From NCBI RefSeq assembly GCF_038025025.1, contig NW_027117347.1, forward strand, positions 186,001-250,000: DNA of 64,000 nt. The letters are read 5' to 3'. Positions 20,932 to 42,516 of the stretch are shown in pieces (position 1 is the stretch's first letter; the number at the start of each line of letters is the position of its first letter). Source of the DNA: Phyllosticta citribraziliensis (lineage: Eukaryota). The position numbers were made by a program, and so were the translations under genes. The notes under the pieces were generated by a model. It had not been told where the DNA came from. It saw only the letters and a list, made by a program, of their open reading frames with translations, and did not search any database.

Positions 20932-21381
20932 GAGAAGGGAGGAAGAGAATAGGAGAAAAGAGAAGAGAAGAGAAGAGGAAGAGAAGTAGAAGAGAAGAGG
21001 AAGAGAAGAGAAAAGGAAGAGAAGAGGAAGAGAAGAGAAAAGGAAGAGAAGAGGAAGAGAAGAGGAAGAGAAGAGGAAGAGAAGAGGAAAAGAAGAGGAA
21101 GAGAAGAGGAAGAGAAGAGGAAGAGAAAAGGAAAAGAAAAGAAAAAGAAGAGAAAGAGAAAAGAAAAAGAAGAGAAGAGGAAGAGAAAAGAAAAAAAAGA
21201 GAAAAAGAAGAAAAAAGGAAGAGAAGAAAAAAAGAAGAGAAGAAAAAAAGAAGAGAAGAGAAAGAGAAGAGGAAGAGAAGAAGAAGAGAAGAGAAAAAGA
21301 AGAGGAAGAGAAGAGGAAAAGAAGAGAATAAAAGAAAAAGAAGAAAAGAGAAGAGAAGAGAAAAGGAAGAGGGAGAGAAGG
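20932..21381. repeat. 450-nt polypurine tract, degenerate (GAAGAGAAGAG)n
   Basis: Only A and G except three T (20950, 20987, 21329). An 11-nt period is visible at about 21040-21125. Confidence 0.95.
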
Positions 21382-22092
21382 TATGGCTGCCTGCTCGACG
21401 CACCTCTTCCGTTCCTTTACTTGAGTTGAGGTGCTTGCAGAAATCGTCATGGCTCCATAGGCCTGGTTGATGTTCTGGTCTGGTTCCGCTGTTGGCTCTG
21501 ATACTTCTTGAGGATCCAGTGCTACAGACGACGCTTTCTGACGAGTATCGCTGCTTCCTTTGACTGGCCTCCCTGATGGCGTTTGTTTACTTCACGTCGT
21601 TTTCAGGTGTTGAGATGGGGTGCAGACAAGACAGTCACCCACACGCAGAGCCTCGGCCGAGCAGCATCGACTCAACGGATGTCGGCCAGACCTACCGAAT
21701 CAACAGCAAAAGGCTTTTGAGGTGGACGGAACCGTCTCAAATTCGATACAGTCCATCTGGACTCGCCACAACTTTTCCAAAAGCTCTTGCGTTCCTCGGT
21801 CCAGCGTGGCCCACGTGTGCTCCAGGATCCGGCTGTTTCCCCGCAACCTCCACTCGCGAGACGAGCCCGAAGGGGAAGGTATCGGGTCAGCGACATCTTG
21901 TACCACGCAGAGACGCGCAAGAAAAATGGGGGGTTTTAGAGCTGCCTCGTCGCCTTGTTCGTGTCCTGCTCTTACCTTTGCACCTGGTGAGATAGGGTTT
22001 GTCTTGCACAAGCGGTCGATATGCCTTTGCGAAGCGATTGGAGGCTCCAGCGAGAAGGCGAGTATCCCTGTTGCTTGTCGAGTACCTGCGTG

Positions 22093-23557: not shown

Positions 23558-25531
23558 ATGTCCATCTCTCCCGGTACTTCTCCCCTCCCATTGACCCGAC
23601 AATGCTGACCTGACAGCTGCCGTCTGGGCCGCCGCCCCCTCGACCACCCGCGGTCAAGCTACCCCTCTATCCTCCGACTCCAAGGGAGAGCGCATCGCAT
23701 ACGCCGTATGATTCTCTGACGTCGATTCCGAATCCTGGCTTACCTCCGTAGTCTGGCAAATCCATCTTTGTCCGCAACATCGACGATCCCTCCGTCAGCA
23801 GGCAGTACACAAACCACCAAGCACCAACAACTGTCGCACGCTTCTCGCCGTCTGGCTTCTACGTCGCCAGTGGTGATGCCACCGGCTCGGTCAAGGTCTG
23901 GGACTGCGTAGGAGAAGGCGCCACAAAGGGTTGGACTCACCTGGAGAATATCAGAGCCTCGCTGATAGCTTGCTTGCTTAGGAGACTACCACATCATTGC
24001 GGGCCGGATCAATGACTTGGCCTGGGACGGCGACTCGCAGCGCATCATCGCCGTCGGCGACGGCAAGGAGCGCTTCGGCCACTGCATAACCTGGGACAGC
24101 GGCAACAGCGTCGGGGAGATTTCAGGCCACTCGTCGCAAATCAACTGCGTTGCCATTCGCCAGCAGCGACCCCTTCGCGCTGCCACCGGAAGCGATGACA
24201 CCAGCATGGTCTTCTATCATGGCGCCCCTTTCAAGTTCAACACCAGCTCCCGCGGCCAACACGACAGGTTCGTCTTCGGCACCGCCTTCAGCCCCGACGG
24301 AACGTACCTCGTCACAGTGGGAGCCGACAAGAGGATCTGGCTTTATGATGGCAAGACTGGCGAGGCCAAAAAGTCGATTGGCGAGGGCGTGCATACCGGA
24401 AGCATCTTCGGTGTCTCTTGGTCCAGCGATTCCAAGAGGTTTGTCACGGCCAGCGCCGACCAGACTGTGCGCATTTGGGAGGCCGAGTCTGGGGAAAACG
24501 TCCACACCTGGAGGTTGGGCGAAGAGGGTGTCGTCAACATCAGTGACCAGCAAGTCGGTGTCACATGGCCTGCTGGACGCAGCGACGGCCTGATCATCAC
24601 CGTCGACCTGGGCGGCAACCTCAACTATCTCGTGGAGAGCAGCGAGAAGCCCATCAAGGTCCTGCCCGGCCACTCAAAGAACATCACCTCCGCAGGCATC
24701 AGCGGGGACAAGTTCTTCACTGGAAGCTACGACGGCAGCATTCGGGAGTGGGATGTCAAAACTGGTGTTGCTGACCATGTGGATGGCGAGACGCACACCA
24801 ACTACGTCGCTGGCTTTAGAGAATCCACCGCAGGCTCCGAGCCCAGGATGTACAGTGTGGGGTGGGACGACACTCTGCGCACAATCTCCGTCAACGCCAA
24901 GGCCTTTGTTGGTTCGAAACTGGAGCTTGGCTTCCAACCCAAAGGCGTTGCAACGAGCGGGAACAGCGTGCTGGTTGCATCTCCCACTTCTGTCGTCATT
25001 TACGAGGAGGGCAAGGAAGTCGGCTCGCGCCCCATGCCGCACCCGCCAACCGCCATCGCGGCCCACGAGAACCTCGTCGCCGTAGGAAGCGAGGACAACG
25101 TCGTCCGCCTTTTCGAGTTTGCCGGCACCAACCTGAAAGACCTCGGCATCGAGCTGTCCAACTCGACGACGGCCATCTCGACCCTCTCCTTCTCGCCCAA
25201 GGGAACCTTCCTCGCCGCCGGCAACACGGGAGGCAAGATCCAGGTCTACTCGGGCAAGACGGGCGAGTGGAGTCTGATCACGGACCGCTGGAGCACGCAC
25301 ACGGCACGCATCACCGCCGTCGCGTGGAATGACGGCGAGGAGTTTGCCGCCAGCGGCAGCCTGGACACGAATGTCTACGTGTGGAGCGTGGCGAACCCGG
25401 GCAAGCGGGTCAAGACGCTGAACGCGCACAAGGACGGCGTCAATGGCGTTGCGTGGGTTGGCAAGGACACGGTGCTGACGACGGGCGGTGATGCGACGGT
25501 CAAGGTTTGGAAGACGGAGCGCCTCGTGTAG
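23558..25531 (+). CDS. AIP1: Actin-interacting protein 1 (WD40, WDR1)
   Basis: MSISP|AAVWAAAPSTTRGQ...ERIAYA|SGKSIF...LAWDGDSQRIIAVGDGKERFG...TGSDD...YHGAPFKF. Introns 23574-23616, 23706-23751 and 23930-23981. Confidence 0.93.
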
Positions 25532-26536: not shown

Positions 26537-27186
26537 TGGTGGCCGAAGTTTGCCGTCAAAGAGCGTCCCTGATTCCCAAAAGACCGTGGAATTATGAGAG
26601 AGATTTGAGGTATCGTCCCGAATCCGCATCATTCCATAAGCTGGGATTGAGGAAAGATCACGACAAATAGCAGCAATGCCGATAACCAGCGACAATTTAG
26701 CTTTCTTGTTGGACAGAAACTGCCCGTTCCGGCTAGGAAGGGATGGAGAATCTAACGGCAAAAGGCAGTTTTTCCAGGGACAAGCGGTCGGAAACGTGGG
26801 CGAACCAAGCGTTGAATTCCAACGCAAGCCGGGGACATCTCATGGGGGCCAACTCGAACATCAGCACCAAACGTACCGACCTCGATGGCCAAAAGTGTTT
26901 GTATCGCAAAAAGCTTTCGTCTTCTGTCATAGAGTGCACCATCAGGTATCACCGCTGTGTTTCGGATCCTCAAGATAGGGAGACAAAAGTATAGAAGATG
27001 GCCCTGCAATTACTGAATCAGGCGCAATTCAGGTGTGTCTCCATGCCTTTCTCTTTCATAACCCATATCTCGTTCCTTTTGCCTCCATCCTTCTCCACTA
27101 CCCCTTGTATTGATTTTGAGCGACGAGGAGCGACAACGAGTGCGAGGTGGACTTTGAGCGGAGAGGACGTTGGACGAGGAAGACGG

Positions 27187-27260
27187 CGAGCGAGGTAGAT
27201 GTAGAGCGAGGTAGATGTAGAGCGAGGAAGATGTTGAGCGAAGAGGTTGAGCGAAGATGA
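27187..27260. repeat. 16-bp minisatellite GAGCGAGGTAGATGTA, decaying
   Basis: Two perfect copies followed by degenerate GAGCGA-led copies. Confidence 0.75.
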
Positions 27261-28147
27261 CATCGAGTGATGAGGACGGCGCGCGAGGAAGACGGTGACC
27301 GAGGAGGACGGCGGGTGAGGTCGATTGGCGAGCAAGGAGGATGGTCAGTGAATGAAAAGTTGAGTAGTTAAAGTCTTACGGACTGCAATTCTTGGGCAAA
27401 GCTGGGGAAAAGGGAGTAGAAGGTAGGGAATTGAAATAGCAAAGCGATGTGCTTTCATGCGATCTCTGCAGGATGGCATTTCAACGGCGTGCCGATAGAG
27501 TTGGGACGAGGAAAGAGCTGAGGGATGGTCGGGTGGGCTTCTACGTGAGGCAGCTGCGCAGAACAATCCAATCCCATGGCCGGGGCTTGCACTGTGGCTC
27601 CTGCCTTACTGGCAAGGTCAGGCAGGTAGGCGGGTGGTGGTGAAGTTCCGCGCTTCACTCGATTCCTTTCCTTTCCCTCTCCAGCACCGCCGTCATGGAT
27701 CGAGCGTAAGTACAACCCCCACCACCATTCTTTCGGCTTGCAGACACCAGAGCGAAGTTTCAAAAGCATTCTTCTCCTCATCAGCTTGCCTTTTGTCGAT
27801 CTTTCTGCGCTCGCGCTCGCAATTCCCTCCCCAAAGTTGAACGTTCCTCGGGGAGCTTGTCAACACCAGCACAGAAGTCACGAAGACATCCTCTCATTTA
27901 CACTCCGTCCTTTTCATTACACACCCTGCTGTACTCACGACTGCAGTCTTGTCTCTACAGATTACTACTGCTCTTACTACTCACCAGCATCAGCACAGAA
28001 GTTACAACGAATCATCTCCGGTACTTTCTTTAGCGAATCTTTTCAGTTTTTGCTTGTTTCGCCAGGAATTCACATCACCATTTTCACATTACCATGCTTT
28101 TTTTCTGATTAAGCTAACTTAGAGATAGTTTTTTCTTCGACAATGCA

Positions 28148-28924
28148 ATGTTTGTGGGTCACAATGACCACAACTTCTCCTCGGGCTCCCTTATGCCCAC
28201 CAGCACTGGCGATGACAGGCCCGCTTCGCCGCCACCTACTCTTCAGGAAGCCTTGCCGCCGGCGCGCAAAAAGCGCAAGAAAGAAGAGCCCAAAGGGCAG
28301 AACATTGTGGTGGAAAGTGGGGAGAATACCCAGGAAAATGGAGAAGAAGTTGCAAAAAGGATGGAATACCAAGCTACCATTCTGGACTGCTCGCGGCGTG
28401 TCAACCAGGTGTTGTGGTGGGAGGAAAAATTGCGTGGCGTGAAGAAAGTCACCGCTATGTACCAGGCCTACAAGTTGGTGCTCGACACGGCCATCCTTGA
28501 AGAGTTTTGGGATCATAGGATCAAGGCACACAAGTGCAGGTATGTTCTAATTTCCTAATTTCCTATGTTACTATTCCCTTACAATTTCTAATCATTTCTA
28601 ACAATTTCTTAGGAAATGCAAGAAGCATAAAGATGATTTTACACAGAAGACGTATCTCGTCTGCAATGACTGCTCGCCAGCTGATCGTAAGAAAAGAAGC
28701 AAGGACAAGACTGGCTCCATATGCATGTATGCATAGTCTACCATCTCAAATCCTTGGGAAATGATTCTAACTTCTTCAGACAATGCGAATCGGTATACGT
28801 TGCTGGCCAAAAATGGTACAAGGGACCAATCTGCAACAACTGCTACAACCGCAACAGGAAAGCGAAGAAGAAGGAGAAGCAGGAAGAGGAAGAACAGGAT
28901 GAGGAGGAACAGGATGAGGAGTAG
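28148..28924 (+). CDS. Orphan ~216-aa protein with two C4 zinc fingers (second GATA-like), NLS-like motif and acidic tail
   Basis: Exons 28148-28539, 28613-28726 and 28780-28924 (GTATGT/GTATGC donors, CTAAC branch sites, TAG/CAG acceptors) splice in frame to ...KCRKCKKHKDDFTQKTYLVCNDC...ICIQCESVYVAGQKWYKGPICNNCYNRNRK... Start codon uncertain. Confidence 0.7.
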
Positions 28925-29462
28925 AAAGTTTTCGAGGGCCGAGGCACCAGGCGCAGCGGTTCCACTATCAGATAAGACCACACACCCACCTTTGGCATCA
29001 TCATGCACAACACCATGCCGAGCCGGAGGCAATGCTACTCCCTGTTCGCCTTCGTCTCCACCGTCCAGGTTGCAGCACACTTTGGCGATGATAAGGAAGC
29101 AGAAAGAGAAGGCGATGCATGTTGCCGCCAATCGCCTCGGTGTTGCTACAGTGTTGAGCAAGTCCGACAGGCTCTGGATCAACCGTGGACCACCACTCAA
29201 CACCTCGCCTTCTTGGCGCCAACGTTGTCTTCTCCGGCTGGTTAGGGTCTCCACAAATGATGGCGCAGTGATGTACCAGATCTTCTCTTTTAAGCAAAGG
29301 GGCAGCACCCGCATTGTTGGGGAGAGGGAGCATAGAAACCGTGGAATCAAAATCTCCTCCATTCGTTCCTCTCTTCTCCTGTTCCGTATATTTGTCTCCC
29401 TTGCCTTTGACTGGTTGTTGCAATCAACTACGCAAAAGCTTGCCGTTGGCCTCTTTTCAAAC

Positions 29463-31420
29463 ATGGCCGCCCACGACAACGAGCAAGTGCAGTCGCAGCA
29501 GACGGGTGGCGGCGACAATGGCACACCACAATGGAACGAAAAGAAGACGCCAATCACCTCCGCCTCTCCAATCGAGTCCAGAGACTCCATGACGCAAAAG
29601 GGCGACAGCCTTCGGCAGCACTCTTCCACTTCTCCCTCGGACGAAGATGAGATCCTCGAGTCCGACTACACGCCGGAGCAGTACGCCAAGCTGCTCAAGA
29701 AGATTGACCGGTATCTGCTGCCGCTCATGTGGTTTAGCTACGGCATCCAGCAGACGGACAAGACGGCCGTGAGCACGCAGGCCCTGTTTGGGCTGCGCGA
29801 GGACACGCACCTCGTCGGCCAGCAGTACTCATGGCTCACGACCATCTTCTATCTGGCCTACGTTTGCGGAGAGTTCCCTTCAAATTTCCTCCTTCAGAGA
29901 TGGGCCCTGGGTCGCACTCTGAGCATTTACATGCTGTTCTGGGGTGCGTAGATCAAACAAACAACACTTTCTCTCCTTCTCTGGCGTCGAGACCATCACT
30001 GACATTTTCCAGGCGTCTGCGTCATCTGCATCGCCGCCGCGCAAAACTGGACACACCTGATGGTCCTCCGCGGGCTGCAGGGCTTCTTTGAATGCACCAT
30101 CTCGCCGGGATTCGTGCTGGTCATCAGTAGCTGGTACCGCACCGAGGAGCACGCATCGCGGCAGCTCTTCTGGCAGAGCGCCAACGCCGGCTTCGGCATC
30201 ATCTTCAGCCTGTGCATGTACGGCATTGGAACGCACGCCGAAAAATACGGCGGCCTCGCTGCCTGGAGAGCCATCTCGCTTTTCCTGGGTACCGCCACGC
30301 TGCTGCTGAGCGTCACGAGCTTTGCGTTGCTGGGTAGTCCCAAGGAGGTGAGGTGGATGAATAAGGATGAGAAGCGCATGGCGTGAGGCTTTCTTTCGTC
30401 CCCCTTTTCCATGTGTTGAAGCTGACGTTTAATACGACGACAGTGCCGCACGCATCGTCAAGAACAAGGCCGGACGTGACGTGACGGGCGTCAAGTGGTC
30501 GTGGCCGCAAGTCGCCGAAGCATTCAAAGACCCGCAGTTGTACTTTTGCTGCGCCAACGCGTTTATGTCGTCGGTTCCAAACGGGTAAGCGACCCCTGTG
30601 CTCTTTTTTGGGTGTCGGGTTGATTGCTGACGCGGAGGGCGCTGTTGTTTAGTGGTCTGTCGACATTTGGTAGCTTGATGAACCAGTCGTTTGGCTTCAC
30701 GAAGCTGCAAGTGCTGCTGATGGACATACCGCGCTCGGGTAAGGAGACGATGCTCTGCTCCCATCTCTTGGATTCTCCTCACTAACTCCATCTCTCCAGT
30801 CGTCTCGGTCCTCGTCTTCGTCGCCGTCGGCATCTACACGCGTCGCGTGGCTAACCGCCGCATGTACATCATGGCTTTGGGCACTCTTCCGCCCTTTGCC
30901 GGAATGCTCGCCATGGCGCTGCTCCCCAACACGCCCGAGTACAAGTGGATCAAGTGGGGCATGTACCTGATGACGATGCCGTTCGTGCTGGCGCTGTTCC
31001 TAGGCTGGACGCTGAGTGCGTCTCCCCTCCCCTCCCTTTTCATTCTCGCCATCCCAGACAGACATACGGACTAACACCACCCCAGTCTCCTCCAATGTGG
31101 CCGGCCGCACAAAGAAAACCATCATCTCGTCGGCCACCTTCATCGGCTACTGCACGGGCAACATGTGCGGCTCGCAAATCTTCAAGGAGGCCGACGGCCC
31201 GCGCTACATCCCCGGCACCATCGGCTGTAGCGTGTGCTTCGGCCTCGAGTTCTTCCTCATCTGCGCCTGGCGCGCCTGGTACGTGTGGCAGAACCGCCGC
31301 CGCGACCGCGAGGCCGCCGCCAGTGGCCGCTCGCCCGAGGAGATGGAGAAGGAGGGCAGGGATATGGGTGAGAGGGATGTTACTGATTTGCGGAATCCGC
31401 ATTTTAGGTATGCTTTGTAG
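29463..31420 (+). CDS. MFS transporter, allantoate permease (Dal5/anion:cation symporter) family
   Basis: LLKKIDRYLLPLM...QQTDK...GQQYSWLTTIFY, GFFECTISP, SWYRTEEHASR, SNVAGRTKK, DVTDLRNPHFRY. About five introns (first 29944-30012, last about 31016-31085). Confidence 0.93.
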
Positions 31421-31681
31421 GGTGCTTGGGGGGCGGGTGCGGGTGGGGGTGCGTGGATGGGGAAGGGTTCGTTGGTTGGTGATGGGTTTGGTTGGGAGGA
31501 CGAAGAGTACGAAGAGGAGGATGTGAGCGAGGGGGACTCACCTCTCCAGTATCACGACAGCAAAACGACATTCACCTGATTCATCAAAGCATTTGGCAAC
31601 TGGACTGAGTTCAGTGGCCATGAGATGGTTTTGAATTCTGGATTGATTGAGTAGGCTAAGGGGGGGCATCCGCAATCCAAG

Positions 31682-32090
31682 GCCAGTATCCCATCTCCAG
31701 AAACCAATTGTAAGGGAAGTGGGTGTCATCCTCCGGTGGCTCCTGCGCATGGTCTTTTTCGCGCCACCGAAGGGGAAATCAACTCTGAACCAAGGGGGTT
31801 TGTCGCTGTCTGTTCCTCCGCCATCTTCCAGCCAGTGTTCCGTCTCAAAGAAAGAAATTGCAAGGGAGGTGGGTGTCGTCCTCCGGTGGCTCCTGTGTAT
31901 GATCTTTTTCGCGCCACCGAAGGGGAAATCAACTCTGAACGAAGGGGGTGTGTCGCTGTCTATTCTTCCGCCATCATTCCAGCCAGTGCTCCATCTCAAA
32001 GAAAGAAATCACAAGGGAAGGAAGGTGTCATCCTCCAGTGGCTCCTGTGTGTGTTTGCAGTCGCGCCACTGAAGGGGAAATCAAATCTGA
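31682..32090. repeat. ~150-bp tandem repeat, about 2.7 copies
   Basis: GCCAGT..TCC/CCCATCTC-type unit starts at 31682, 31831 and 31982. AGGGGAAATCAA recurs at about 31770, 31921 and 32073. Confidence 0.92.
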
Positions 32091-32144
32091 GGAACACTCT
32101 CCAATAGCTCCGTGCAGCGTTTTCGGGCCATGTTGCTTGGTCTA

Positions 32145-34685
32145 CTACTTCTTCAGACCACAGATGAGGCAACCAGGAGTGTTATGCTCAGCGCAAGCGG
32201 GCAGATCAAAAAGAGACGACCTAGCGCGAGTAGTTGGAGGGGAACTGCGATTACGGGCACGCTGACGAGCAGTTGCCCCCTCCAACTCAGTGCGAGTGGG
32301 ATCGCGCTTGTGTCCACGCTTGAAGGCAGTGGGCTGTGCAGGCTGGGCGGACGAGTAAGCGGTCTGGGACTGACCAGTTGATGTGGCAGGCGTCGCACGG
32401 GCAGATCTGGGACTTTGAAGCCTTTCCATGCCTTGAGCCAAGTCTTGATCAACCGTGGTTCCTTGCTGCATTGATGAGGAAGGGTGAGGGGGCAGTGCCG
32501 CCGCTGGAATGACTTCCGCACCGGTCCACTGCAGCTTCTCTGGGGAAGTCATGAGAAGATTGATGTAGCTCTGGGGATGCGGCTCAGGGCCACGAAGCGC
32601 CTCCCTCTTCCTCTTTCCCGCTGCGTCGTTTTCCCTGAGAATCCCTGAATGAGTCCACGTGCATGGACGCTTCAGGACACCCTCACAGATTACGCAGTTC
32701 CTACCGTTGCGCGATCGTTTGCATACGCCGTGGTTATCCTCCAAGCAGGTATCGCACCTTTCTCTTTGACGGTCGTCGTTGAGCGTTATTCGCCATCCTG
32801 TGTTGATGTTGTGGAGGCCGGCGGCTTTGAGCTCCGCTACCAAGGCGTGCTCTGACTTTGCAGACTGGTCCGGGCAAACTCCGACGCCGCCACGCTCTTT
32901 TGAGAAAATGAATGTTCTGTTGAACAGGTCTGTGGTGATGTCTCGAAACCTGCACAATCCGAGCAAAGAGTCCCAGGAACGGGGGTTCGAAGGGGCGACT
33001 CTGTGAAAGAAGTGATAGAGTGACATGGCTGCGACGTAGTCACGGAGGGATCCAGCGCCTTTTTCGTCCATGCTCGTAGCGGGCTCCACATTGGTAAAGC
33101 GGCACTCGCGCTGTGCATACTGGCACATCCAGTTACCAGCTTCATCCTGCCACTCAAGTCGGCATGCGAATAAGCCTGCCAGGTTCCAATCCTTGAATGG
33201 ACCCACGGTTGGCAATCGAACCCAGGAACGAGGATGACGTCTGTAAGGATCGGCTGGGTCAGGTGTAAGGAAGACGAGCACCAGCTGGGCCAACGTCTGC
33301 TCCTTTGGAAATTTTGTTGCGTCGAACTGAATCGTCACCGTGACCGTTTCGCCCGATGCTCTTCGTCCCCGGAAAACCCAGTCGGCCGTCACCCTCTTCC
33401 ATGATTCGCCTTCCTTCCGCATCTCTTTTTTCTGAATGGTGTGCGAGGGTCCAGAGGTAAAAATGGTGACCTCACCATACGTCTGGTCCATTACCTTGGT
33501 CCTGTACCATAGACTTTGCTGGTAGTCGAGACCGGCTTCCATGAACGGGCTGGAGATGTTCAGACCAATTCCTGGTGTGCGGCCGAAGGAGGTACGGTGG
33601 CAGGCGCCTGGCCAGGTGAGATTGGAGGGTTGCCTCTCTTGGACAGACTTCGTGAAAGCCATGAGCACCCTGCCAGGGAAATACCACTTGCCACTGTGAT
33701 GCGTAGCTTGCCCGATGTTTTCCTGTGCTACGTTCTGAAACCTGTATGTCTCGAGAAGGCAGACGAAGAGCTGTTCCACGAACAGGTCCAGATTTGTTGC
33801 GGAGGCATCCTTCGGCAAGTGGCAAAGGGGAAGCTATTCGTAGCCCATTAGCCTAACGATTCCATGGTATGAGGGACCTGGTGAACTTACCATGCGAAAT
33901 TTCTTCGCCTTCCGCGCGATGTCGTAGTGAAAACTTTCATCCTTGTCGACAAAAATGGATTGATGATGAGTTTTGAATCGGCTCGAAAAGGTGGTGCAAC
34001 GACCGACATAAAGCCAGAACATGTCTGCCGGATAACCTTCAACTTCCCAGTAGAGGCGGAGGTAGATTCCTCCAACGGAGCCGTGGGACGTGGGTGTAAC
34101 AGTTTTGCAACGGTTCAGAATGTCCTGGCAAGTGAAGTTGGGCTTGTTGAATGTTTCCAGCAGCCGAGCGTCGCGAACGCCCTTCTTCATCAGCGTGATC
34201 AATGCACCAACTCCTTCAGCTTGAGGACGGACGAGGGAGTGCCACCAGTCAGGAACGACAGTCGAAAGAGATGCATCCTTCTGCTGGTGGATGGCGAGAG
34301 TCCATGCTCTAGCTGTGCTGGTGAACAACTCGTCCCCAGTAGACGATGAAGAGCTGGCATCAACGGTGAAGTAAGGAATTTCAAATCCTCCATCGATAGA
34401 GACATTGAATGCGGACCACGGCTCTTGTCCCACCACGATGAATTGTCCGGGGACCCAGCCTTGACTGGTCTCTTTGGGCTGGTTGGGATTGTAGAGGACA
34501 AACATATTCTGTCGCGGATCGTAATCCCGAATGTAGCCGACGTCCCCCTCTTCGATGACGATCTGAGAGCGACCTGAGAGATGCGCGTTATCGTAGCTGC
34601 TGACGGCTTTGAATGGATGGCCAATCATGTCTTCTTTTTTGAGGCCAGGCTTGGGCTTGATGGGGGGTTTATTGGGAGGAGCCAT
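32145..34685 (-). CDS. Orphan ~827-aa protein: SH3-like domain, GIY-YIG nuclease-like domain and six-Cys Zn-cluster-like motif
   Basis: ORFs 33834..34685 and 32145..33818 join in frame through intron 33834-33890 (GTAAGT...CTAAT...TAG): KKFRM|LPLCHLPKD. Motifs: KAVSSY..IEEGD..QGWVPGQFI; GIY-x17-YVG-x7-R-x3-H..E..GLN; C-x2-C-x7-C-x8-C-x2-C-x7-C. Probable 5'UTR intron at about 34703-34757. Confidence 0.72.
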
Positions 34686-34882
34686 GTTGATGGCAAAGTC
34701 TTCTGTTGGGACATGTCAGTTGTGGTAAGGCATAAGAGTTACGGGGGATCGCTTACCGCAAAGAAGTTGTTGGCTGTTCCTGATTTTCGCAAGCGTTGAT
34801 GACGGATGGGGCCTTGAGCAAGAGCTTCTCAGAGGAAGATGAAGTTGAACCGTGGACCTGAGCAAACTCAGTGTTGAGAGCA

Positions 34883-35017
34883 CCGGAAGCGAGCAGAAAG
34901 GTGTGCGGGGTGCGGAGTTGAGGTTTCAGCGCCGGAAGCGAGCAGAAAGGCGAGGAGAGTGGTGTTGGGTTGAGGTTTCGGCGAGCTCAGGGTCGAGAGC
35001 ACCGGAAGCGAGCAGAA
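34883..35017. promoter_or_regulatory. Three copies of CCGGAAGCGAGCAGAA upstream of the GIY-YIG-like gene
   Basis: Identical 16-mer at 34883, 34932 and 35002. The regulatory role is inferred only from position. Confidence 0.4.
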
Positions 35018-35450
35018 GGATGTGGAGTTGTGATCTGGGCAGGCTGGATATTGACAGCGCCTGGAGCGAGCAGTGGGTGGAGGGGGTATGGAAGGGGAAA
35101 CACGCAGTGGGCCGGAAGTTGAAGGCACGGCTCAAGCGCTGAGAAGGTGAAAGGTACGAGGGATTGTAAGAGGTGCTGTTCCGTCAGGAAGAAAACAGAG
35201 GGAAGATATGGGGGGAGGTGTAGGTAAGTGGGCGAGTGGACGGCGTCTACGCCAGATGGGTGGGCAACAGCTTTGTTTGGCCAGCGGGGTCAGTTTGGCC
35301 AAAAGTGTTAATTGTTTGATCGAAAGTGTTAACTGTTTGCCTAAACCTGCCCGACACCGCTCCTCAAATGCTCACTTATGCAGTTTGCTACAAACGATAG
35401 CGCTTTTGCAAATCTCAACACAAACAGCTGTGCCCTCTAGCTCCGGCGCC

Positions 35451-35488
35451 CACAATCAACATCACTGTACACAATCAACATCACTGTA
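35451..35488. repeat. Perfect 19-bp tandem duplication CACAATCAACATCACTGTA x2
   Basis: Read directly from the sequence. Confidence 0.9.
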
Positions 35489-36406
35489 AAGGGTACAACA
35501 GTTCAAAGCGGGAGTAGATGAGAGCCATCGAGCAACAACGCTGCGTGGCTACATGAGAAAGAAAGAAAGACAGAATTGATTCCAGCAGAGACAGGTATGT
35601 CCGTCCGTCCGTACATCTATGCGCCGTACGCCCATACATCAAGCCATAAATTCATTCATCAAACAAACAACTCCGCCTACCTTCACTCGTGTCGGGTAAT
35701 ACCATCTCACACTGAAGCAAAGAGCAAACCTGCTCCTCCTTCTCGGCCACCTGACCTGTGCCTACTCCTTCTTTTCCTCGAGCGCGTTCTTATACGCATT
35801 TGCCTTCTGCGCGACGATATCGAATTTGCCCTTGATGTGTCCTGTCAGAATACCTGCAAAAGCATCGTTGGTAAACAAGTAAATAACCACAGATATCACG
35901 AAATCTTATTTTTAGTAGATCAATGGGGAACTACCGTCGCGGCTTCTAGGGGCTGAGGCACGACGTTAGTTCAAGGGCGCGTTTGGTGAGGCTCTGTTGT
36001 TTGTGGCGGGCGGCGTGCCAGAATTAAGGTATCCATTGTTTAGAGTGGCGGCTGTGCCCGAGCCGACGAGGCTTTCAGGCTCAAGTCCTTGTCTGGCGAA
36101 CCCTGTTAGACATGGGCTTGGGATCGCCCCCTGTGAATAGTTGAGCGTGCTCCAGGAGCGTTCATGGGGAGTACAGTACGAGCCATAGAAAATTGATGGA
36201 AAAAGCGGCGACGATGAAGTGCCAGAGAGCAAGAATGTTTTCCTGAGTAGAAATGCGGCCGTTGGCAACGCCGCGGGTACCTATCATCCGCAAAATCCCA
36301 TCGAAATAACCCAAAATCGCTTCGTCTCGGCAGCTAAGTCGTGTGCTCATGACAGCATTACAAAAGCCAAGCTCTCACAGGCAACTCTGCCGACGCCTCT
36401 TCCAGA

Positions 36407-36901
36407 CTACCTGGTCCTGATGATGATCCTCTCCCTCTCCTCGACAAGACTCCCACTGCTCGTGGTCGGCGCCCGAACTTCGACTCGTCGAATCAAGCCA
36501 CCATCGCTCGTGTGATAGGAACGGCCAGGGCCATAGCTACCGGCGCTGCTAGCTGCGTAGCTCGCGCTTCCAGCGTACGAACTTGGCAGCAGCTCCTCGC
36601 GGTACTCGATGTGTTCGCCCACCTGCGAGGGAATGCGGCCGACGTGACCGCTGCTGCGATGGAGCGGGAGCGGGGCAACTGCTGGAGGCAGCGGGGCGTA
36701 TCGGCGGCGCGATACAGAGCGAACCCTGCGTGGCGGCGGAGGTGCTTCGTAGTATTCGACCACTTCTTCATAGGAGCGCCGGGGAGGCGGCAGGACGCGC
36801 GCGCGGGCCGAGGCTGTTGAAAAATTGGAAATGCGGGCCGGAGGGAGCGCGGCTGCGGAAGGCGGCGGCACATATGTCGTCGAACGGCCTATCCAGCACA
36901 T
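36407..36901 (-). CDS. Small Pro/Arg/Tyr-rich hypothetical protein
   Basis: 164-aa ATG-initiated ORF, GC-rich, protein-like motifs (YEEVVEYYEAPPPPRR, EERERIII). Confidence 0.45.
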   Translation of the reverse strand: MCWIGRSTTYVPPPSAAALPPARISNFSTASARARVLPPPRRSYEEVVEYYEAPPPPRRVRSVSRRRYAPLPPAVAPLPLHRSSGHVGRIPSQVGEHIEYREELLPSSYAGSASYAASSAGSYGPGRSYHTSDGGLIRRVEVRAPTTSSGSLVEERERIIIRTR

Positions 36902-38261
36902 GGTTGTCGTGGTGGGTGTTTTCCCGGGTTTTCAGGGGTTTGTCGATAAGTTTTCCAGGATCGAACAGAATCCTCTTGTTTTGTGGAAGTGAAGGCGTCA
37001 GGCTGACTGAAGGCTGAAGATCTGGGCTCTGTTCACACGCCCGGAAAGCTGCGGCTGCGTTCTGCACAAGACTGATGGGCGAGGACGTCAAGGGGTCAGA
37101 TGGCAGTGCGATGCGCCCCGTGAGTGGTGCGCCCCGTAGGTGCGCAAGACGGTCTTGAACTGGACCCTGAAGGAACAAGAAGCGCAAGTCAGATCCAAGG
37201 CATGGCGATGCCGTCTATAAAGGATCGCGTCAGCCTGATGATTTCGGTGGCTGGGACGCACGTCGGGCGGCATCGCCATGGGCGCCGGTTCCGTGCGGGC
37301 TTGGGCACGCCGGAAGCCTCATTGCTCGCTCAGCTCAGGCTCTCAGGCAGGTAAGCAGTCTCGTGATGGCATCGGCAGCGTGACGTAAGTGGTGATGAAC
37401 TTGGTCTGATGTCAACAGCTGAAGAGGTTGGCGCTAACCTGATATGGCAAGTGGATGCCGGGTTCGAGTCGCTCGCCATTCGTTCTGGTGGGAACTACGC
37501 CATGCTTATGCGGTCTTGAATGATGCAGAAATTGGCCAGTGAAGGATTCTGCAGTTCTGCCAAGCCATGCAAGTTCGTCCAGTTAATACGCAGAGCTTTC
37601 AGTTGCGACCTAGCTTCAACAGGTTAGCTTGCCTGTCATTTCGGTGACACTCTCTGATCGTTGTGGGTCAGAAGAATGGCATTCTGGAGATGAAGAACAA
37701 CGAGAAATAAATCGACGATGAAGTAGAGCGAGCAATCTTGAAAGAATCGAGATGGTCGAGGTTGTGGGTCGCGAATCAGAGGAGGACTCGGCATGGGTAA
37801 AGGTCAAGGCCCGCACTCCGCTCCGCCACGCTCCGCCCCGCCCCGCCACGCTCCGCCCCGCCCCGCTGCAGCGGAATACCGAGCGGCGCGCATGCATCCG
37901 ATCCCAGACTACGACGACATTTTGCTGCTCCAACTTTCTGGTCAACACCCGTTACCCACGCGGCCACCACAATCTCTGACGCCAGAACACCTTTCGCAAT
38001 CACTGTCGACTGATTGACGACACGCGGACCACGCAATCGCGCAGCCTGCCACCACACGCACGCCCGCACGCCCGCACGCCCTCCACGCTCGCAGACGACC
38101 GAGCAGCATCAACACAGACGACATTCGAGCGCGAGACCTGAGCGGTAGCCGCAGCGACTACCACGGTAGCATCAGCATCTAGGCAGTGAATCGGACCACG
38201 GCATCACACTCAACGAGGACACAGCTCCACGAGCCCGAGACAACCACGCACAGCAAGCACC

Positions 38262-38858
38262 ATGGCCAAAAAGGCGCTGCCCAAGGACCAAATCGTCAAG
38301 CTGATAGTCGGCGCGGGCATGGCGTCGCCGTCGCCGCCCGTCGGTCCCGCGCTGGGATCGAAAGGTGTCAAGAGCATGGATTTCTGCAAGGTACGCCGTC
38401 TCAACACCACGTCCACCTCATGCCACCCCACTAACACACCCGCTCAGGAATTCAACGCACGCACCGCACACTACACGCCCGGCACGCCCATCCCCGCCCG
38501 CATAACCGTCCGGCCGGACCGCAGCTTCCACTTCGAGCTGCGCACGCCGCCGACGGCGTCGCTGCTGCTGGCGGCGGCCGGCGTGCCGCAGATCCGCAAC
38601 AAGACGCGCGGGGCGGGCAACGTGCCGGGGCCCAAGAACAACGCCGAGGGGCAGACGGGCGGCGCCAACGTCAAGGCGGCCGAGGGCGTGCGCGGCAACA
38701 GCGGCACGGGCACCGTCGGCAAGGTCAGCCTCAAGCATGTGTATGAGATTGCGCGCGTCAAGATGCAGGAGCCGCGGTTGGCGGGCGTCGGGTTGGAGAA
38801 TTTGAGCAAGTGCATCGTGGCGCAGGCGGCAAGTATTGGGATTGTGGTTGTGCCGTGA
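38262..38858 (+). CDS. MRPL19: Mitochondrial ribosomal protein uL11m
   Basis: [38 protein letters not shown]...PDRSFHF..TPP...[13 protein letters not shown]. In-frame intron 38391-38447. Confidence 0.95.
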
Positions 38859-39706
38859 GGGAGAGGCATGAAGGAGAGGGAAAAGAGAGTGGCATGCTGT
38901 TTTGTAGTTTTCCAAAAGGGCGGCAGGACAAGACAAGACAAGCCGCAGAGTCGGAGGAGCGTGACCGAGGAGCAAATTCAATCAAAACAAAAACAAAAAG
39001 ACCGAGGGGTGACGGGTTCAAAAGCGCCATCCATTCTACACATCTCTTTCTCTCCCCCTATTTACCGTACCCGTGTAAAGTTGCATGTCCTGTCCCGCAA
39101 GAAGAACAACATCACACAGCACCCCCTTCCTCCTTCCTCCTTGCTCCCCACTCAAAGCACTGATTAGACAACAGTTGGTCAGCTACCCACCTACCTCACC
39201 TCAGTCAGCCAGCCAGCCAGACCACCATTTGCAGCAGCAGCGGCGGGGCGGCGGACGAGGAGGAAAGGGGTCTAGACGCGCACATACATTTGATGAAGTG
39301 TGATCAAGCAAGCAGTAGCAGCAGCAGAATACATCGCAGATAGGCAACGCCAGGGAGATAAGGAGGGAGACAAGCGCACACGTGGTATACAGTCTGAGCA
39401 GGTACTTTAGATAGCCCAGGGGGCAGTATGTCACAGTACCTTACGCCAGTAGGAGATCTGTCAGATGTTTGAATGTCTTTGTTTTATGCCATTGTGCTTT
39501 CTTCCTCTCTTCCTTTCTGCCTGCTCACCCGAACCCCCTTGACTTCTCTCCCGTGCTGTTTGTTCATCGGGCCTGGCGTATCTGCAAAGGCCCTGCGCGT
39601 GATGAAAGACAGGACATGAGTAGCCAGCCATCGGTTTCTTGCTTGCTTCGCGTCTCCCCTTTCTGCTTGATGGACTTTTCTCGCACCCCCTCCTTCCCCT
39701 CCACAC

Positions 39707-40581
39707 CTACACAATCGTCTCCAACTCCCGCGCATACCCCAGCGTATTCTCAATCACCGTGCCACTCATCTGCACGACGTCGCGATCGGCGCTCAGCTGC
39801 TCGAGCTCCGTCTGCGGGAAGTAGATGCGGCCGTCGCGGCCGTTGCACGCCCAGCCGCGCTGCTTGGCGAAGTCGACGACCGCGCCCTCGCTCTCGAGGA
39901 ACAGCAGCGACTTGGCGTCCGTGATGGGGATCGAGGGGTAGGCCTTTTCGCTGCACGACGCGATTTCGGAGCGGATTGTTGCGATGAGTACCTAGGGGGT
40001 GTTAGTGGAAATGGGTGGGTGATGGATGGACGACGCACCTGCGAAAAGACGCTGAATTCCTCGCTGGGCACGCGCTCGCCCTTGGTCTCGCCCCACACGC
40101 GATCATACGCGCCCTCCATGAGCGCCTGCTCCAGCCGCACAGGATACTGCACGAACGGATCCTCATCAAGGCGGCGGCCCTCCTTCTCGCCCTCGACCTC
40201 CAGGCCCTCGAGCACGGTGTGGAAGCCGGCATAGTCGCCCTGGCTCAACAACAGCAGAAGATAGAGACCGGTAATCTTGCTGCGCTGCGAGCCCGCCGGC
40301 GACAGCATCGACGGCGGCAGCGCGTAGAAGGGCGCCACGCTGTGGTAGTAGCGCACGAAGCTGTCCGGGTCTTGCTGCTTGATGGAGATGAGGGCGCCGA
40401 GTTCGTGGATGGAGCGCGCGGCGGCGAGGGCGGCGGCCGAGGTGCTGGGCGACGGCATCAGCGCGTTGGACTGCAGCAGCAGCAGCTTGGCGCGCGAGAG
40501 GAGCGGCCCCGCGCTTGCTGGGTCGCGCTGCAGCGCCGTTTGCAGCTGCGTGGTGATGGTTTGGAGGTCCTTTTCTGCCAT
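39707..40581 (-). CDS. RPN12: 26S proteasome lid subunit Rpn12 (PCI/SAC3-GANP domain)
   Basis: ARSIHELGALISI...FVRYY...ITGLYLLLLLSQG...FHTVLE...PVRLEQALMEGAY; after intron 39992-40038, TIRSEIASCSEKAY...YARELETIV. Confidence 0.95.
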
Positions 40582-41543: not shown

Positions 41544-42516
41544 CTAGACTTCCATTCCCAGGAATAACCACGCGTCGCTGACAATGGGCGGCTTGTCGGT
41601 CCACTCGGCCAGCGTGACGGGCTCGAAGCCAATCCAGCCGAGATCCTTCATGAGGCCCTTCATGTCGTCACCGGGCGCCGCGGCGCGGTCGAGGCAGACG
41701 TTGAGGCGCGCGCAGTCAAACTCGGGCAGGCTGCACAGCTCGATCAGCGCCATGAGGCCCGGCTTGAGGTCCCGCACAGCCGCGGCCGCGTCGAAGAAGA
41801 CAAACATGTTCTTCTCGTCGCCGCCGCTGTTGTCGGCCACGAAGCCGCGGAAGAGCGCGCCGCCGACGTAGTCCCACACCTCGATCCACTGCTCGATGGC
41901 GCTGCCGCAGTAGAGGTGGGCGGCATCAAAACCCTTGACGTCTGGGGCGTCGGGCGGCGACGGCAGGCCGATGCTGTTGCCGTTGTTCATGTTGATGTTG
42001 CAGGAGGTTCCAATCCTTCTAGAGTTGCGGTGGTGGTAGTTGATGTAGTCGTCGTCGATGGCTTGGTCGTCGTCGTCTTCGTTGTTACACATGGCCGTTG
42101 CAAGCGAGTCCTGGCAGCCCACGTTCCCCTCACCAAGGAAAATGGTCCGCAGTGTCTCGCAGAAGAGTCTCTCACACTCTTCCGCAATGGTGCATGCAGC
42201 CCCCCCTCTGCGCGCCGAGCCGAGCTGCTTCTTGGGCGTGCTCAGCTCACGGATGGCGGCGAGGGGGGGGCTTTGTGGAGGCGATGGCATTCCCTGCAGC
42301 CACAAGTCAGCAAACGACTCAACACCATGACTTGGACTCAAGATACTCACCGAGCTGACCTCAGGAACGCCACTCGGCCCCGCCGGCCCCGGTAGTGGAG
42401 TAATGGAAACCCTGGAGGGCCATGGAAGAGGCATCGACCGAGTAGCAACTGGCCTTCATGGCGGGGGCGCGGTTGCTACTATTACTACTACTAGATGTAC
42501 TGGAATTTTTCGCCAT
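41544..42516 (-). CDS. OAZ1: Ornithine decarboxylase antizyme, expressed by +1 programmed ribosomal frameshift (~304 aa)
   Basis: ORF1 42516-42361 (51 aa, ...ASCYSVD...FHYSTTGAGGAEWRS-TGA). The +1 frame continues EVSS|GMPSPPQSPPLAA...IAEECERLFCETL...WDYVGG...LKPGLMALIEL...LGWIGFE...WLFLGMEV. Intron 42294-42350. Confidence 0.93.
42361..42372 (-). other. +1 frameshift site TGG-CGT-TCC-TGA
   Basis: ORF1 ends in TCC TGA, the shift-site codon pair known from mammalian and S. pombe antizyme mRNAs. Confidence 0.9.

Follow-up and report, generated by a model that had tools for sequence, protein, structure and literature searches.

The question raised by this locus is what kind of protein would carry an SH3 domain, a GIY-YIG nuclease core and a cluster of six cysteines, and whether it is a selfish, defensive or host enzyme. 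The locus lies within a 64,000 bp stretch of the Phyllosticta citribraziliensis genome, the whole of which is referred to here as the window. To our knowledge, nuclear eukaryotic GIY-YIG nucleases are known from few settings, namely Slx1, ANKLE1 and Penelope-like elements. The sequence and the predicted structure point to a likely answer, which is an intact nuclear ascomycete gene for a modular, metal-dependent DNA endonuclease, with a leaning towards a lineage-variable role in genome conflict.

Gene model and intron

Two stop-to-stop open reading frames (ORFs; 33834..34715 and 32145..33833) were found on the minus strand in one shared frame with a single TAG between them, and the ATG start codon of the gene is at 34685 on the minus strand. 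An earlier note on this DNA had proposed that the two ORFs splice in frame to ~827 aa, and this was borne out by a canonical 57-nt intron that is also used in the deposited model and by homologues that continue across the junction. The joined ORFs encode 827 aa, with 265 aa from exon 1 and 562 aa from exon 2, and the product of 809–827 aa is identical to the deposited P. citribraziliensis protein model. The features of the gene are as follows.

32148..34685, minus strand: coding region of the 827-aa model (tail unspliced), with the stop codon at 32147..32145
34685..33891, 33833..32267 and 32220..32156, minus strand: exons of the deposited 809-aa model (annotated protein)
33834..33890, minus strand: intron 1, 57 nt, in frame and containing one stop, with a GTAAGT start, a CTAAT branch-like site and a TAG end
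32221..32266, minus strand: a 46-nt second intron, used by the deposited 809-aa model, that reads GTCAGC ... CTAG and whose signals are weak

Intron 1 falls between M265 and L266, inside the GIY-YIG domain, at a junction coinciding with that of the deposited protein, and the family alignment is continuous across this point, with an insertion in only one of 102 relatives. The second intron alters the last 19–37 residues only. Five contigs of 151–204 nt were obtained from two sequencing runs, neither of which is recorded as RNA, and none of them spans 33834..33890 or covers the second intron.

A gene-model artefact or a decaying pseudogene, with two chance ORFs linked by a fortuitous GT-AG pair, would be in keeping with the finding of no RNA-supported splice among these contigs and with the disagreement of the two models at the 3′ end of the gene. 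However, the 827 codons are in frame with their sole stop inside a canonical intron, the predicted fold is confident over both exons with one domain spanning the junction, and homologues are collinear with the window's protein over residues 2–690. An artefact or pseudogene is consequently very unlikely, close to negligible as an explanation, and the locus is, as judged from its sequence, a real and intact nuclear gene of the ascomycete P. citribraziliensis with predicted splicing.

The predicted nuclease core and its family

An AlphaFold model of the full-length protein (pLDDT 80.6, pTM 0.80) was ordered over residues ~10–690, with a predicted order of SH3 domain, helical region, GIY-YIG core, beta-rich domain of ~245 residues, six-Cys cluster and disordered tail. 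The corresponding positions are given below.

34422..34628, minus strand: SH3 domain, residues about 20–88, from a structure match and the family profile
34110..34358, minus strand: helical region, residues about 110–192, with no family assigned and with WW147-148, G169 and F184 conserved
33549..34076, minus strand: GIY-YIG domain, residues 204–360, split by intron 1 and with a helical insertion at ~296–345
34064..34062, 34010..34008, 33980..33978, 33776..33774 and 33560..33558, minus strand: catalytic codons for Y208, Y226, R236, E285 and N357, respectively, to which H240 is added
32784..33521, minus strand: beta-rich conserved domain, residues about 370–615, matched neither by a Pfam family nor by a known structure
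32649..32765, minus strand: six-Cys zinc-cluster-like module, residues 622–660, R-x2-C-D-x-C-x7-C-x8-C-x2-C-x7-C-T-W-T
32148..32624, minus strand: C-terminal tail region, comprising a short helix (669–679) with a basic KRKR patch (672–675) and a disordered Ala/Thr/Ser/Pro-rich part from 693 to the end

The GIY-YIG fold consists of three strands and three helices and has a central Arg and a C-terminal Glu, and members of the homing-endonuclease and UvrC lineages also have an Asn in motif E. In the available part of a 2006 survey, the domain is described as about 100 aa long with the 'GIY' and 'YIG' motifs in its N-terminal part (PMC1564403). Every motif position predicted by the earlier note was found in the window's protein, where G206-I-Y208 (G206 codon at 34070) is followed after 17 residues by Y226-V-G228 (34010), after a further seven by R236 and after three more by H240, with E285 (within FVEQLF) and N357 (within G355-L-N357) downstream. 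Conservation among 102 aligned relatives was high for Y208 (93/94), Y226 (87/95), G228 (92/95), R236 (90/96), E285 (96/96) and N357 (96/100), and H240 was present in 76/94 with Tyr in 13. All seven catalytic positions were kept in 109 of the 133 members bearing the domain, and at least one was changed in 24 of the 133.

Comparison of the predicted model with crystal structures using VIA placed residues 204–360 on the catalytic domain of I-TevI (1ln0_A; Z 7.7, rmsd 1.9, 90/92 residues, 20% identity), with no other GIY-YIG chain among the 50 VIA matches listed. A Z of 7.7 is middling on the tool's own scale, and the match is persuasive because of its near-complete coverage of the 92-residue domain and not because of the Z value. 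The GIY-YIG fold, the absence of which from a structure prediction had been named in advance as counting against the assignment, was present in the model, and the superposition and the conservation of the motif positions together uphold a GIY-YIG core in which the catalytic set is complete.

The window's own protein was unmatched by Pfam PF01541 at E<=10, and this family was matched by 12/56 relatives at E<=0.01 (best 5.3e-5) and by 29/56 at E<=10. TIGR01453 (group I intron endonuclease) was matched by 3/56 relatives (best E 0.021) and a PHROGs homing-endonuclease family by 2/56, and a profile of the family gave weak matches to I-TevI (1mk0, E 0.16) and SLX1 (7wme, E 0.52) in the PDB. The predicted GIY-YIG assignment is made via the relatives, the conserved motifs and the modelled structure. 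As the catalytic residues are conserved over more than 100 divergent members, a maintained enzymatic function can be argued, and the protein is a probable DNA-cutting enzyme.

The gene had been described as an orphan, but an exhaustive phmmer search at E<=0.001 identified 277 cluster representatives, of which 134 remained at E<=1e-10 and 15 at E<=1e-30, the best relative having 34–38% identity, and the whole architecture is common to 75 of 150 aligned family members. A metagenome scan with the single protein gave 38 pattern matches and no confirmed relative. These sequences appear to make up a large, very divergent, undescribed and apparently ascomycete protein family. No account of a fungal SH3, GIY-YIG and zinc-cluster family was found in a full-text literature search. 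In their available parts, PMC13159263, PMC4226480, PMC5844311 and PMC3482391 deal with Penelope elements, Slx1 or mitochondrial homing genes or contain nothing relevant, and the 2006 survey (PMC1564403), in its available part, has no mention of SH3 or fungi ('fungal' occurs once, in the reference list) and names no family of this kind in the legend to Figure 2. What is already known is the kind of catalytic domain, and parts of such proteins had been flagged by automatic annotation.

The protein resembles I-TevI and other GIY-YIG homing endonucleases not only in the superposed core but also in the series of GIY, Y-x-G, Arg, His four residues on, Glu and motif-E Asn, in a small nuclease head combined with separate modules that would have a DNA-targeting role here, and in the weak family-level HMM matches (TIGR01453, PHROGs). 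However, the gene is nuclear, with a spliceosomal intron and housekeeping neighbours, and is not located in a group I intron, a phage or an organelle. The nuclease is internal here whereas it is N-terminal in I-TevI, the GIY-to-YIG spacer is 17 residues, about 50–65 residues are inserted between the Glu and the Asn, and the SH3 domain, the new beta domain and the six-Cys cluster are additions. Neither this protein nor any of the 56 relatives has a Pfam match to NUMOD, IENR1 or helix-turn-helix modules, and no intron or intein context, no target-site duplication and no sign of homing was seen at the locus. A homing endonuclease gene of the I-TevI type was rejected on the nuclear context and on the lack of NUMOD/HTH-type modules by Pfam.

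Other uses of the GIY-YIG domain in eukaryotes are the endonuclease of Penelope-like elements, which are mobile, and the host nuclease ANKLE1/LEM-3. These differ from the protein studied here, in which, as in its 56 relatives, Pfam finds no reverse transcriptase, ankyrin or LEM domain, and a Penelope-like element was rejected as there is no reverse transcriptase domain. Slx1, which according to the available part of PMC1564403 consists of a GIY-YIG core and a C-terminal RING-type zinc finger and lacks the motif-E Asn, is similar in being a eukaryotic nuclear GIY-YIG protein with a C-terminal module of zinc-binding type. However, the Asn is kept in the present family, the module has six ligands, all of them Cys, in place of a RING, and the protein is far larger, with SH3 and beta domains, in agreement with the earlier reading that the layout is unlike that of Slx1.

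Modules accompanying the predicted nuclease core

An SH3 fold had been proposed for the N-terminus, and it was recovered from the predicted model using both VIA (POSH SH3, 7nzd, Z 8.3, 63/63 aligned, with many SH3 chains at Z 7–8) and Foldseek (Abl SH3, TMt 0.76–0.81), as well as from the family profile, which matched the p47phox SH3 domain in the PDB (E 6e-4). The match of Pfam SH3_KALRN to the window's protein was below threshold (13.7 bits against a cut-off of 29.2, E 0.062), and SH3_1 and SH3_2 were each matched by 2/56 relatives at E<=0.01. The proline-rich N-terminus (PPxxP) upstream of the SH3 domain is conserved (P4 in 53/55 and P13 in 62/67), as is the G-W-V-P stretch of the SH3 domain itself (P79 in 72/89).

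The beta-rich domain is the largest conserved block of the protein, and had gone unnoticed in the first reading of the sequence. A separate model of this region had a pLDDT of 89.7 and a pTM of 0.89. P441, H465, RLP471-473, W481, W493, Y504 and G526 are conserved, and V452 of the window's protein aligns with a position that is Glu in 96/101 relatives. Searches with residues 362–695 gave 19 chains at Z>=2 with a best Z of 2.8 (VIA wide), a best E of 0.032 with prob 0.21 and TM<=0.25 (Foldseek against the PDB) and a best E of 0.028 (BFVD). An Atlas feature search returned CBM_4_9 / galactose-binding-like clusters for the beta part (0.88, 115 shared features), a result that is under the tool's bar and is a lead only. 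The modelled domain is a candidate new fold, the absence of a match being no proof of novelty.

The Zn2Cys6 cluster, the PROSITE pattern of which is C-x2-C-x6-C-x5-12-C-x2-C-x6-8-C, is regarded as a fungal transcription-factor module, and in Gal4 the basic residues that contact DNA are carried by the loop corresponding to the first loop here. In the window's protein, the six cysteines are arranged as C625-x2-C628-x7-C636-x8-C645-x2-C648-x7-C656 (32756..32661), and all six were found in 92 of the 108 members having the region. Among the 102 aligned relatives, the individual residues were conserved in 91/91 (C625), 89/90 (C628), 78/79 (C636), 69/73 (C645), 69/72 (C648) and 75/79 (C656). The first Cys loop, x7 here, varies from 6 to 14 residues among 66 family matches and is x6 in 4/66, and the other spacings fit Zn2Cys6.

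The Gal4 cluster (1aw6) was aligned with residues 617–661 by VIA at a low Z of 2.3 (rmsd 2.8, 41/43 residues), and was 6th of the 19 chains at Z>=2. Neither the full protein nor its 51-aa segment was matched by Pfam Zn_clus (PF00172) at E<=10, and among relatives there were matches in 2/56 at E<=10 (best 0.021). The module resembles Gal4-type clusters in its six conserved cysteines, its C-D-x-C start, the C-x2-C-x6-8-C spacing of its second half and, at a low score, the 1aw6 alignment, and differs in the length of the first loop, in the acidic character of this loop and in its C-terminal location behind a nuclease. The Zn2Cys6 cluster proposed in the earlier note accordingly stands as to the position and conservation of its cysteines and, at a low score, their placement on the Gal4 cluster, but not as to the first loop, which is x7 and not x6, nor as to a Pfam Zn_clus match. 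The stretch from Cys2 to Cys3 is acidic in the window's protein and has no basic residues. Because of the noncanonical first loop, this acidic stretch, the failure of Zn_clus and the Z of 2.3, DNA binding by the module can only be suggested.

The name on the deposited protein, which is automatic, reads 'Zn(2)-C6 fung...'. This name, the alignment of the six-Cys module with Gal4 and the basic KRKR patch would each suit a zinc-cluster transcription regulator in which the nuclease domain is an inactive relic. However, such a regulator is strongly disfavoured, as this protein and 109/133 relatives retain all seven catalytic positions, the zinc module is C-terminal, unmatched by Pfam Zn_clus and free of basic residues between Cys2 and Cys3, and Pfam finds no fungal transcription-factor middle-homology domain. 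The five closest relatives lack the disordered tail that follows.

Genetic context and possible roles

The genetic context of the gene was examined, and the neighbouring genes were found to encode an MFS transporter, ribosomal L11, CSN8, ODC antizyme and FRQ. Two sets of local repeats are adjacent to the gene.

31691..32090, no strand: tandem repeat just 3′ of the gene, with a 150-bp unit, 2.7 copies and 86% match
34862..35082, no strand: loose direct repeats 5′ of the gene, four 44-nt copies with 61–86% identity to the reference copy

The locus had been called repeat-flanked, which is correct in that there are local tandem repeats on both sides, but no inverted repeats were found in 27000..40000 and no further copies of either flank repeat in the window. 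On these two grounds, a transposon was rejected. The block had also been called compositionally distinct, and the GC3 of the gene (0.59–0.61) is mildly lower than that of five neighbouring ORFs (0.64–0.80), but no RIP signature was found. The RIP indices are ordinary, and a RIP-degraded island was likewise rejected.

In a word-based search of 5.8 billion protein clusters, only the protein itself was recovered, with no close orthologue, and a second word search, made with the profile, likewise gave nothing else. The absence from congeners is one from annotated proteins. Using the same database, the neighbouring FRQ was matched in P. paracitricarpa (81%), P. capitalensis (73%) and Botryosphaeriaceae (54–57%), congeners overall being at 73–83%. 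The missing close orthologue, set against the congener matches of FRQ, fits a patchy distribution of the gene.

One explanation is that the protein is a host nuclease for repair, recombination or chromatin, with a role like that of Slx1 or ANKLE1, which is fast-evolving, has been lost in some lineages and is tied to a scaffold by its SH3 domain. This is favoured by the conservation of the catalytic residues across more than 100 divergent members, the stable five-module architecture in 75/150 members, the housekeeping neighbourhood and the fact that Slx1 likewise has a GIY-YIG domain followed by a C-terminal zinc-binding domain (PMC1564403, available part). However, FRQ-carrying congeners have no orthologue among their annotated proteins, codon bias is low, the core is more like that of homing enzymes than those of Slx1 or UvrC, and the motif-E Asn is present here and absent in Slx1 (PMC1564403, available part), such that a host nuclease of this kind is rather unlikely.

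Also unlikely is a selfish nuclear element consisting of a free-standing endonuclease, either homing-type or killer, that cuts chromosomes or alleles without it. Homing endonucleases are the nearest match to the core (I-TevI in VIA, as the sole GIY-YIG chain among the 50 matches listed, together with TIGR01453 and PHROGs), the layout of a nuclease with DNA-binding modules is of the kind expected, no close orthologue was found though FRQ finds congeners, GC3 is below that of the neighbours, and members of the family have diverged greatly, the best identity being 38%. However, no intron or intein context, target-site duplication, inverted repeats or second copy in the window was found, no antidote candidate was found adjacent, and there is no sign of mobility or toxicity in an ordinary gene neighbourhood. 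The fusions to SH3 and fungal zinc-cluster modules and the spliceosomal intron suggest long residence in nuclear genomes, and the absence from congeners is seen in annotated proteins only. An element of this type would spread by repair-mediated copying or by killing of non-carriers, which would account for presence in one species and absence from congeners.

Given the low codon bias and the failure to find a close orthologue in congeners, the preferred reading of a modular DNA endonuclease leans to genome conflict, as a selfish or a nonself-DNA nuclease, and not to core repair. The gene may be selfish or defensive, which would explain presence in P. citribraziliensis and absence from the annotated proteins of congeners. 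In the proposed mechanism, the single GIY-YIG active site would nick or cleave DNA, on which the enzyme may be placed by the Gal4-like zinc cluster and the adjacent basic helix, and perhaps by the beta domain. Such positioning would parallel, by analogy, the separate DNA-binding modules of I-TevI. The SH3 domain and the proline-rich N-terminus may recruit or restrain the enzyme, either by engaging a partner rich in proline or by a contact within the protein itself, and the KRKR patch may direct the protein to the nucleus. The fullest version, in which these are nuclear endonucleases with a homing-type head aimed by a Gal4-like cluster and a new-fold beta domain, controlled by SH3 and encoded by genes acting either selfishly, by homing or killing, or in defence against nonself DNA, is put forward tentatively and is open to considerable doubt.

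The hundreds of divergent members, in which a homing-type nuclease head is combined with an SH3 domain, a module like a zinc cluster and an unmatched beta domain, suggest that fungi have a class of DNA-cutting enzymes that is unexplored. If sequence-specific, these could be natural modular nucleases with a new targeting principle, and if selfish or defensive, a new player in fungal genome conflict. Should the targeted-nuclease reading be true, this would be the first use of the fungal zinc-cluster module in a nuclease. When 17 long relatives were scanned for extra fused domains, SH3 variants only were found in three and a weak match to PBP_like_2 in one.

Gene structure and the first splice

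The gene for the protein carrying SH3, GIY-YIG and six-Cys modules (32145..34685, minus strand) was assembled from two stop-to-stop ORFs found in an ORF scan, which lie in one reading frame with a single intervening TAG.

33834..34715, minus strand: upstream stop-to-stop ORF
32145..33833, minus strand: downstream stop-to-stop ORF
33890..33834, minus strand: intron 1, 57 nt, with a GTAAGT start, a CTAAT branch-like site and a TAG end
32266..32221, minus strand: intron 2 of the deposited model, 46 nt, GTCAGC...CTAG, with weak signals and no clear branch site

The earliest ATG is at 34685, and removal of intron 1 gives a product of 827 aa (265 aa from exon 1 and 562 aa from exon 2). A deposited protein of 809 aa, named 'uncharacterized protein J3D65DRAFT_684185 [Phyllosticta citribraziliensis]' in its source and bearing a second source name that starts 'Zn(2)-C6 fung...', is 100% identical to the window's protein and has the same first junction. 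A script check showed that this model comprises exons 34685..33891, 33833..32267 and 32220..32156. Intron 2 affects the extreme C-terminus only: splicing it out exchanges the final 37 residues of the unspliced frame for 19 hydrophobic ones; otherwise the frame continues to a TAG at 32147..32145.

The junction between M265 and L266 is gap-free in the family alignment, an insertion being present there in 1 of 102 sequences, and the domain that spans it has a confident fold in the AlphaFold model. An intron-bridging contig was not found among five short contigs on this stretch from two sequencing runs. As the alignment is unbroken and the spanning domain folds confidently, the predicted first splice is correct and the gene is real, as judged from alignment and model. 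The gene is also intact. The in-frame splice to about 827 aa, proposed in an earlier note from the sequence alone, is therefore supported at its first junction by the deposited protein and by continuity in relatives, and every motif listed in that note is present at its assigned position.

Modules of the encoded protein

An AlphaFold model built from the 102-sequence alignment had a mean pLDDT of 80.6 and a pTM of 0.80, with residues about 10-690 ordered and 693-809 disordered; from its high pTM, the modules may be packed together as one body. Computed folds were assigned to three modules. For the SH3 module, anticipated in the earlier note, Foldseek against the PDB returned SH3 domains only among the matches listed (Abl SH3, TMt 0.76-0.81, E from 6.7e-3). 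VIA, an independent structure search scored by Z, found SH3 domains at Z 7-8.3, with the POSH SH3 aligned over 63/63 residues. In Pfam, the protein gave one sub-threshold SH3 match and nothing else. A conserved PPxxP lies directly before this domain.

The I-TevI catalytic domain (1ln0_A) was at VIA rank 11 with a Z of 7.7, which is middling by VIA's own note, an rmsd of 1.9 and 20% identity, and was the sole GIY-YIG chain among the best 50 entries listed. The GIY-YIG assignment was made because coverage of the domain is nearly full (90 of 92 residues, aligned to model residues 204..360) and the motifs are present, and not on this Z alone. Of the folds expected from a model and Foldseek, SH3 was recovered by Foldseek, and GIY-YIG, absent from the Foldseek matches listed, by VIA. 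PF01541 (GIY-YIG) was not found in the window's own protein by Pfam scan; of 56 relatives, 29 matched it at E≤10, 12 of them at E≤0.01 (best 5.3e-5). NCBIfam TIGR01453 (group I intron endonuclease) was matched in three of these relatives (best E 0.021) and a PHROGs homing-endonuclease family in two. Matches of the family profile to PDB sequences were all weak (I-TevI, E 0.16; T4 endonuclease II, 0.23; SLX1, 0.52).

The catalytic set is conserved in the 102-sequence alignment at Y208 (93/94), Y226 (87/95), G228 (92/95), R236 (90/96), H240 (76/94, with Tyr in 13), E285 (96/96) and N357 (96/100), in keeping with the GIY-YIG core that had been proposed. All seven positions are kept in 109 of 133 domain-bearing members of a 150-sequence alignment. 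The remaining 24 carry a change or gap at one or more positions (in six, for example, Arg replaces the YIG Tyr), so inactive or mis-modelled proteins may make up part of the family. Judged by the definition in a 2006 survey (PMC1564403), the window's protein has GIY, YIG, Arg and Glu.

The six-Cys module has the pattern R-x2-C-D-x-C-x7-C-x8-C-x2-C-x7-C-T-W-T. Each Cys is 95-100% conserved where the region is present, and all six occur in 92 of the 108 members of the 150-sequence alignment having it. The first Cys loop is 6-14 residues long, with the canonical 6 in just 4 of 66 pattern matches; the remaining spacings agree with the Gal4-type pattern. The Cys2-Cys3 loop is acidic in the window's protein. 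Pfam Zn_clus (PF00172) matched neither this protein nor its isolated 51-aa segment, and matched 2/56 relatives at E≤10. Against a model built for residues 362-695 alone (pLDDT 89.7, pTM 0.89), the Gal4 cluster 1aw6 was among just 19 chains with a Z of at least 2, and fell exactly on the six-Cys segment (41/43 residues, rmsd 2.8) with a low Z of 2.3. On sequence and model, the module reads as a divergent Gal4-like zinc cluster that does not reach PF00172 assignment. The Zn2Cys6 cluster originally proposed was borne out in its six conserved Cys and in part by the low-scoring Gal4 alignment, but not in its first loop (x7) or by a Zn_clus match.

A beta-rich domain spans residues about 370-615, and P441, H465, W493 and G526 are among its near-invariant positions; at the site of Val452 in the window's protein, 96/101 relatives have Glu. 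No structural match was found by VIA among 48,161 chains (best Z 2.8), by Foldseek in the PDB (best E 0.032, probability 0.21, TM≤0.25) or in BFVD (best E 0.028), and no Pfam family was matched. An Atlas feature search gave sub-threshold leads only, to carbohydrate-binding-type beta sandwiches. The modelled domain is a candidate new fold.

Family distribution and predicted function

A word-based search of 5.8 billion clusters matched the protein to itself only. An exhaustive phmmer search covering 1.84 billion representatives recovered 277 proteins at E≤0.001, of which 134 reached E≤1e-10 and 15 reached E≤1e-30, and the earlier description of an orphan was abandoned. The top relatives are mostly 600-800 aa and collinear with residues about 20-690; the closest share just 34-38% identity, and the five closest lack the long disordered tail. 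The nearest clusters are placed in Ascomycota (Atlas). The full SH3, helical, GIY-YIG, beta and zinc arrangement is present in 75 of 150 aligned members, with the zinc module alone missing in 20, SH3 alone missing in 16 and the remainder partial; many of these may be fragments or mis-modelled genes. In 17 relatives picked chiefly from the longest, a Pfam domain was found in four (SH3 variants in three and one weak PBP_like_2 match).

The protein is probably an active modular DNA endonuclease of an undescribed family. It would cleave DNA by the one-metal GIY-YIG mechanism, with targeting by the zinc cluster, for which we infer DNA binding, together with a basic helix containing KRKR (672-675) and possibly the beta domain. 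The SH3 domain and preceding PPxxP could provide control or recruitment. Within this endonuclease reading, a lineage-variable conflict role is slightly favoured over a core repair role.

I-TevI-type modular endonucleases would be closest in their way of working. However, these are encoded within introns, or in phages or organelles, and carry NUMOD or HTH modules, none of which applies to the gene described here. In its product the GIY-to-YIG spacer, at 17 residues, is longer than that of I-TevI, and a helical segment is inserted between Glu and Asn. Slx1 lacks the motif-E Asn according to PMC1564403, whereas the window's protein keeps it and has no RING finger; Slx1 identity was thus ruled out, as the unfamiliar layout had indicated. 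A Penelope-element enzyme was ruled out by the absence of an RT domain in the Pfam scan. The SH3, GIY-YIG and zinc-cluster architecture was not found described in the full-text literature searched, outside subscription journals. The family places a known catalytic domain in an arrangement that is new and widespread, one part of which is a domain without a recognised fold.

Genomic neighbourhood

The neighbours are ordinary nuclear genes, and tandem repeats lie on both sides.

23969..25531: WD40 protein
about 28737..31420: MFS transporter fragments
31691..32090: 150-bp tandem repeat, 2.7 copies, 86% match, directly 3' of the nuclease gene
34862..35082: four loose 44-nt repeats, 5' of the nuclease gene
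38190..38858: ribosomal L11
39793..40938: CSN8/PSD8-family protein
41544..42455, minus strand: ODC antizyme ORF, C-terminal part matching PF02100 (E 3.4e-40)
44955..47813, minus strand: long ORF for the frequency clock protein FRQ (PF09421, E 1.3e-119)

As a control in the database of the word-based search, where the nuclease gene matched itself only, the FRQ ORF matched 1712 proteins at E≤1e-20, including those of P. paracitricarpa (81% identity), P. capitalensis (73%) and one further assembly (83%), with Macrophomina, Lasiodiplodia and Diplodia at 54-56%. Because an ortholog at FRQ-like distance should share enough words for detection, the nuclease ortholog is, on this comparison, either missing from these congeners' annotated proteins or much more strongly diverged.

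The 150-bp repeat separates the 3' end of the nuclease gene from that of the MFS transporter gene. Inverted repeats were not found around the nuclease gene, and the flanking repeats have no further copies in the window. GC3 is 0.59-0.61 in the nuclease gene versus 0.64-0.80 in five neighbouring ORFs, and RIP indices are ordinary. The claim of a repeat-flanked, compositionally distinct block is therefore weakly true: there are local tandem repeats and a small GC3 shift, but no inverted repeats.

Antizyme genes usually require a programmed +1 frameshift. Between the nuclease and L11 genes (34686..38189, ~3.5 kb) there are three ORFs of at least 150 aa, two of which (36353..36820 and 36407..36931) gave no Pfam match; the third is 36553..37017. 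As GC climbs to 0.63 at 36501..37000, this interval may contain an unannotated gene. Relative to a window mean of about 0.58, GC falls to 0.46-0.49 at 21001..22000, 28001..29000 and 44001..45000, two of which have a strong AT skew (0.32-0.39), and these three stretches are probably intergenic or UTR sequence.
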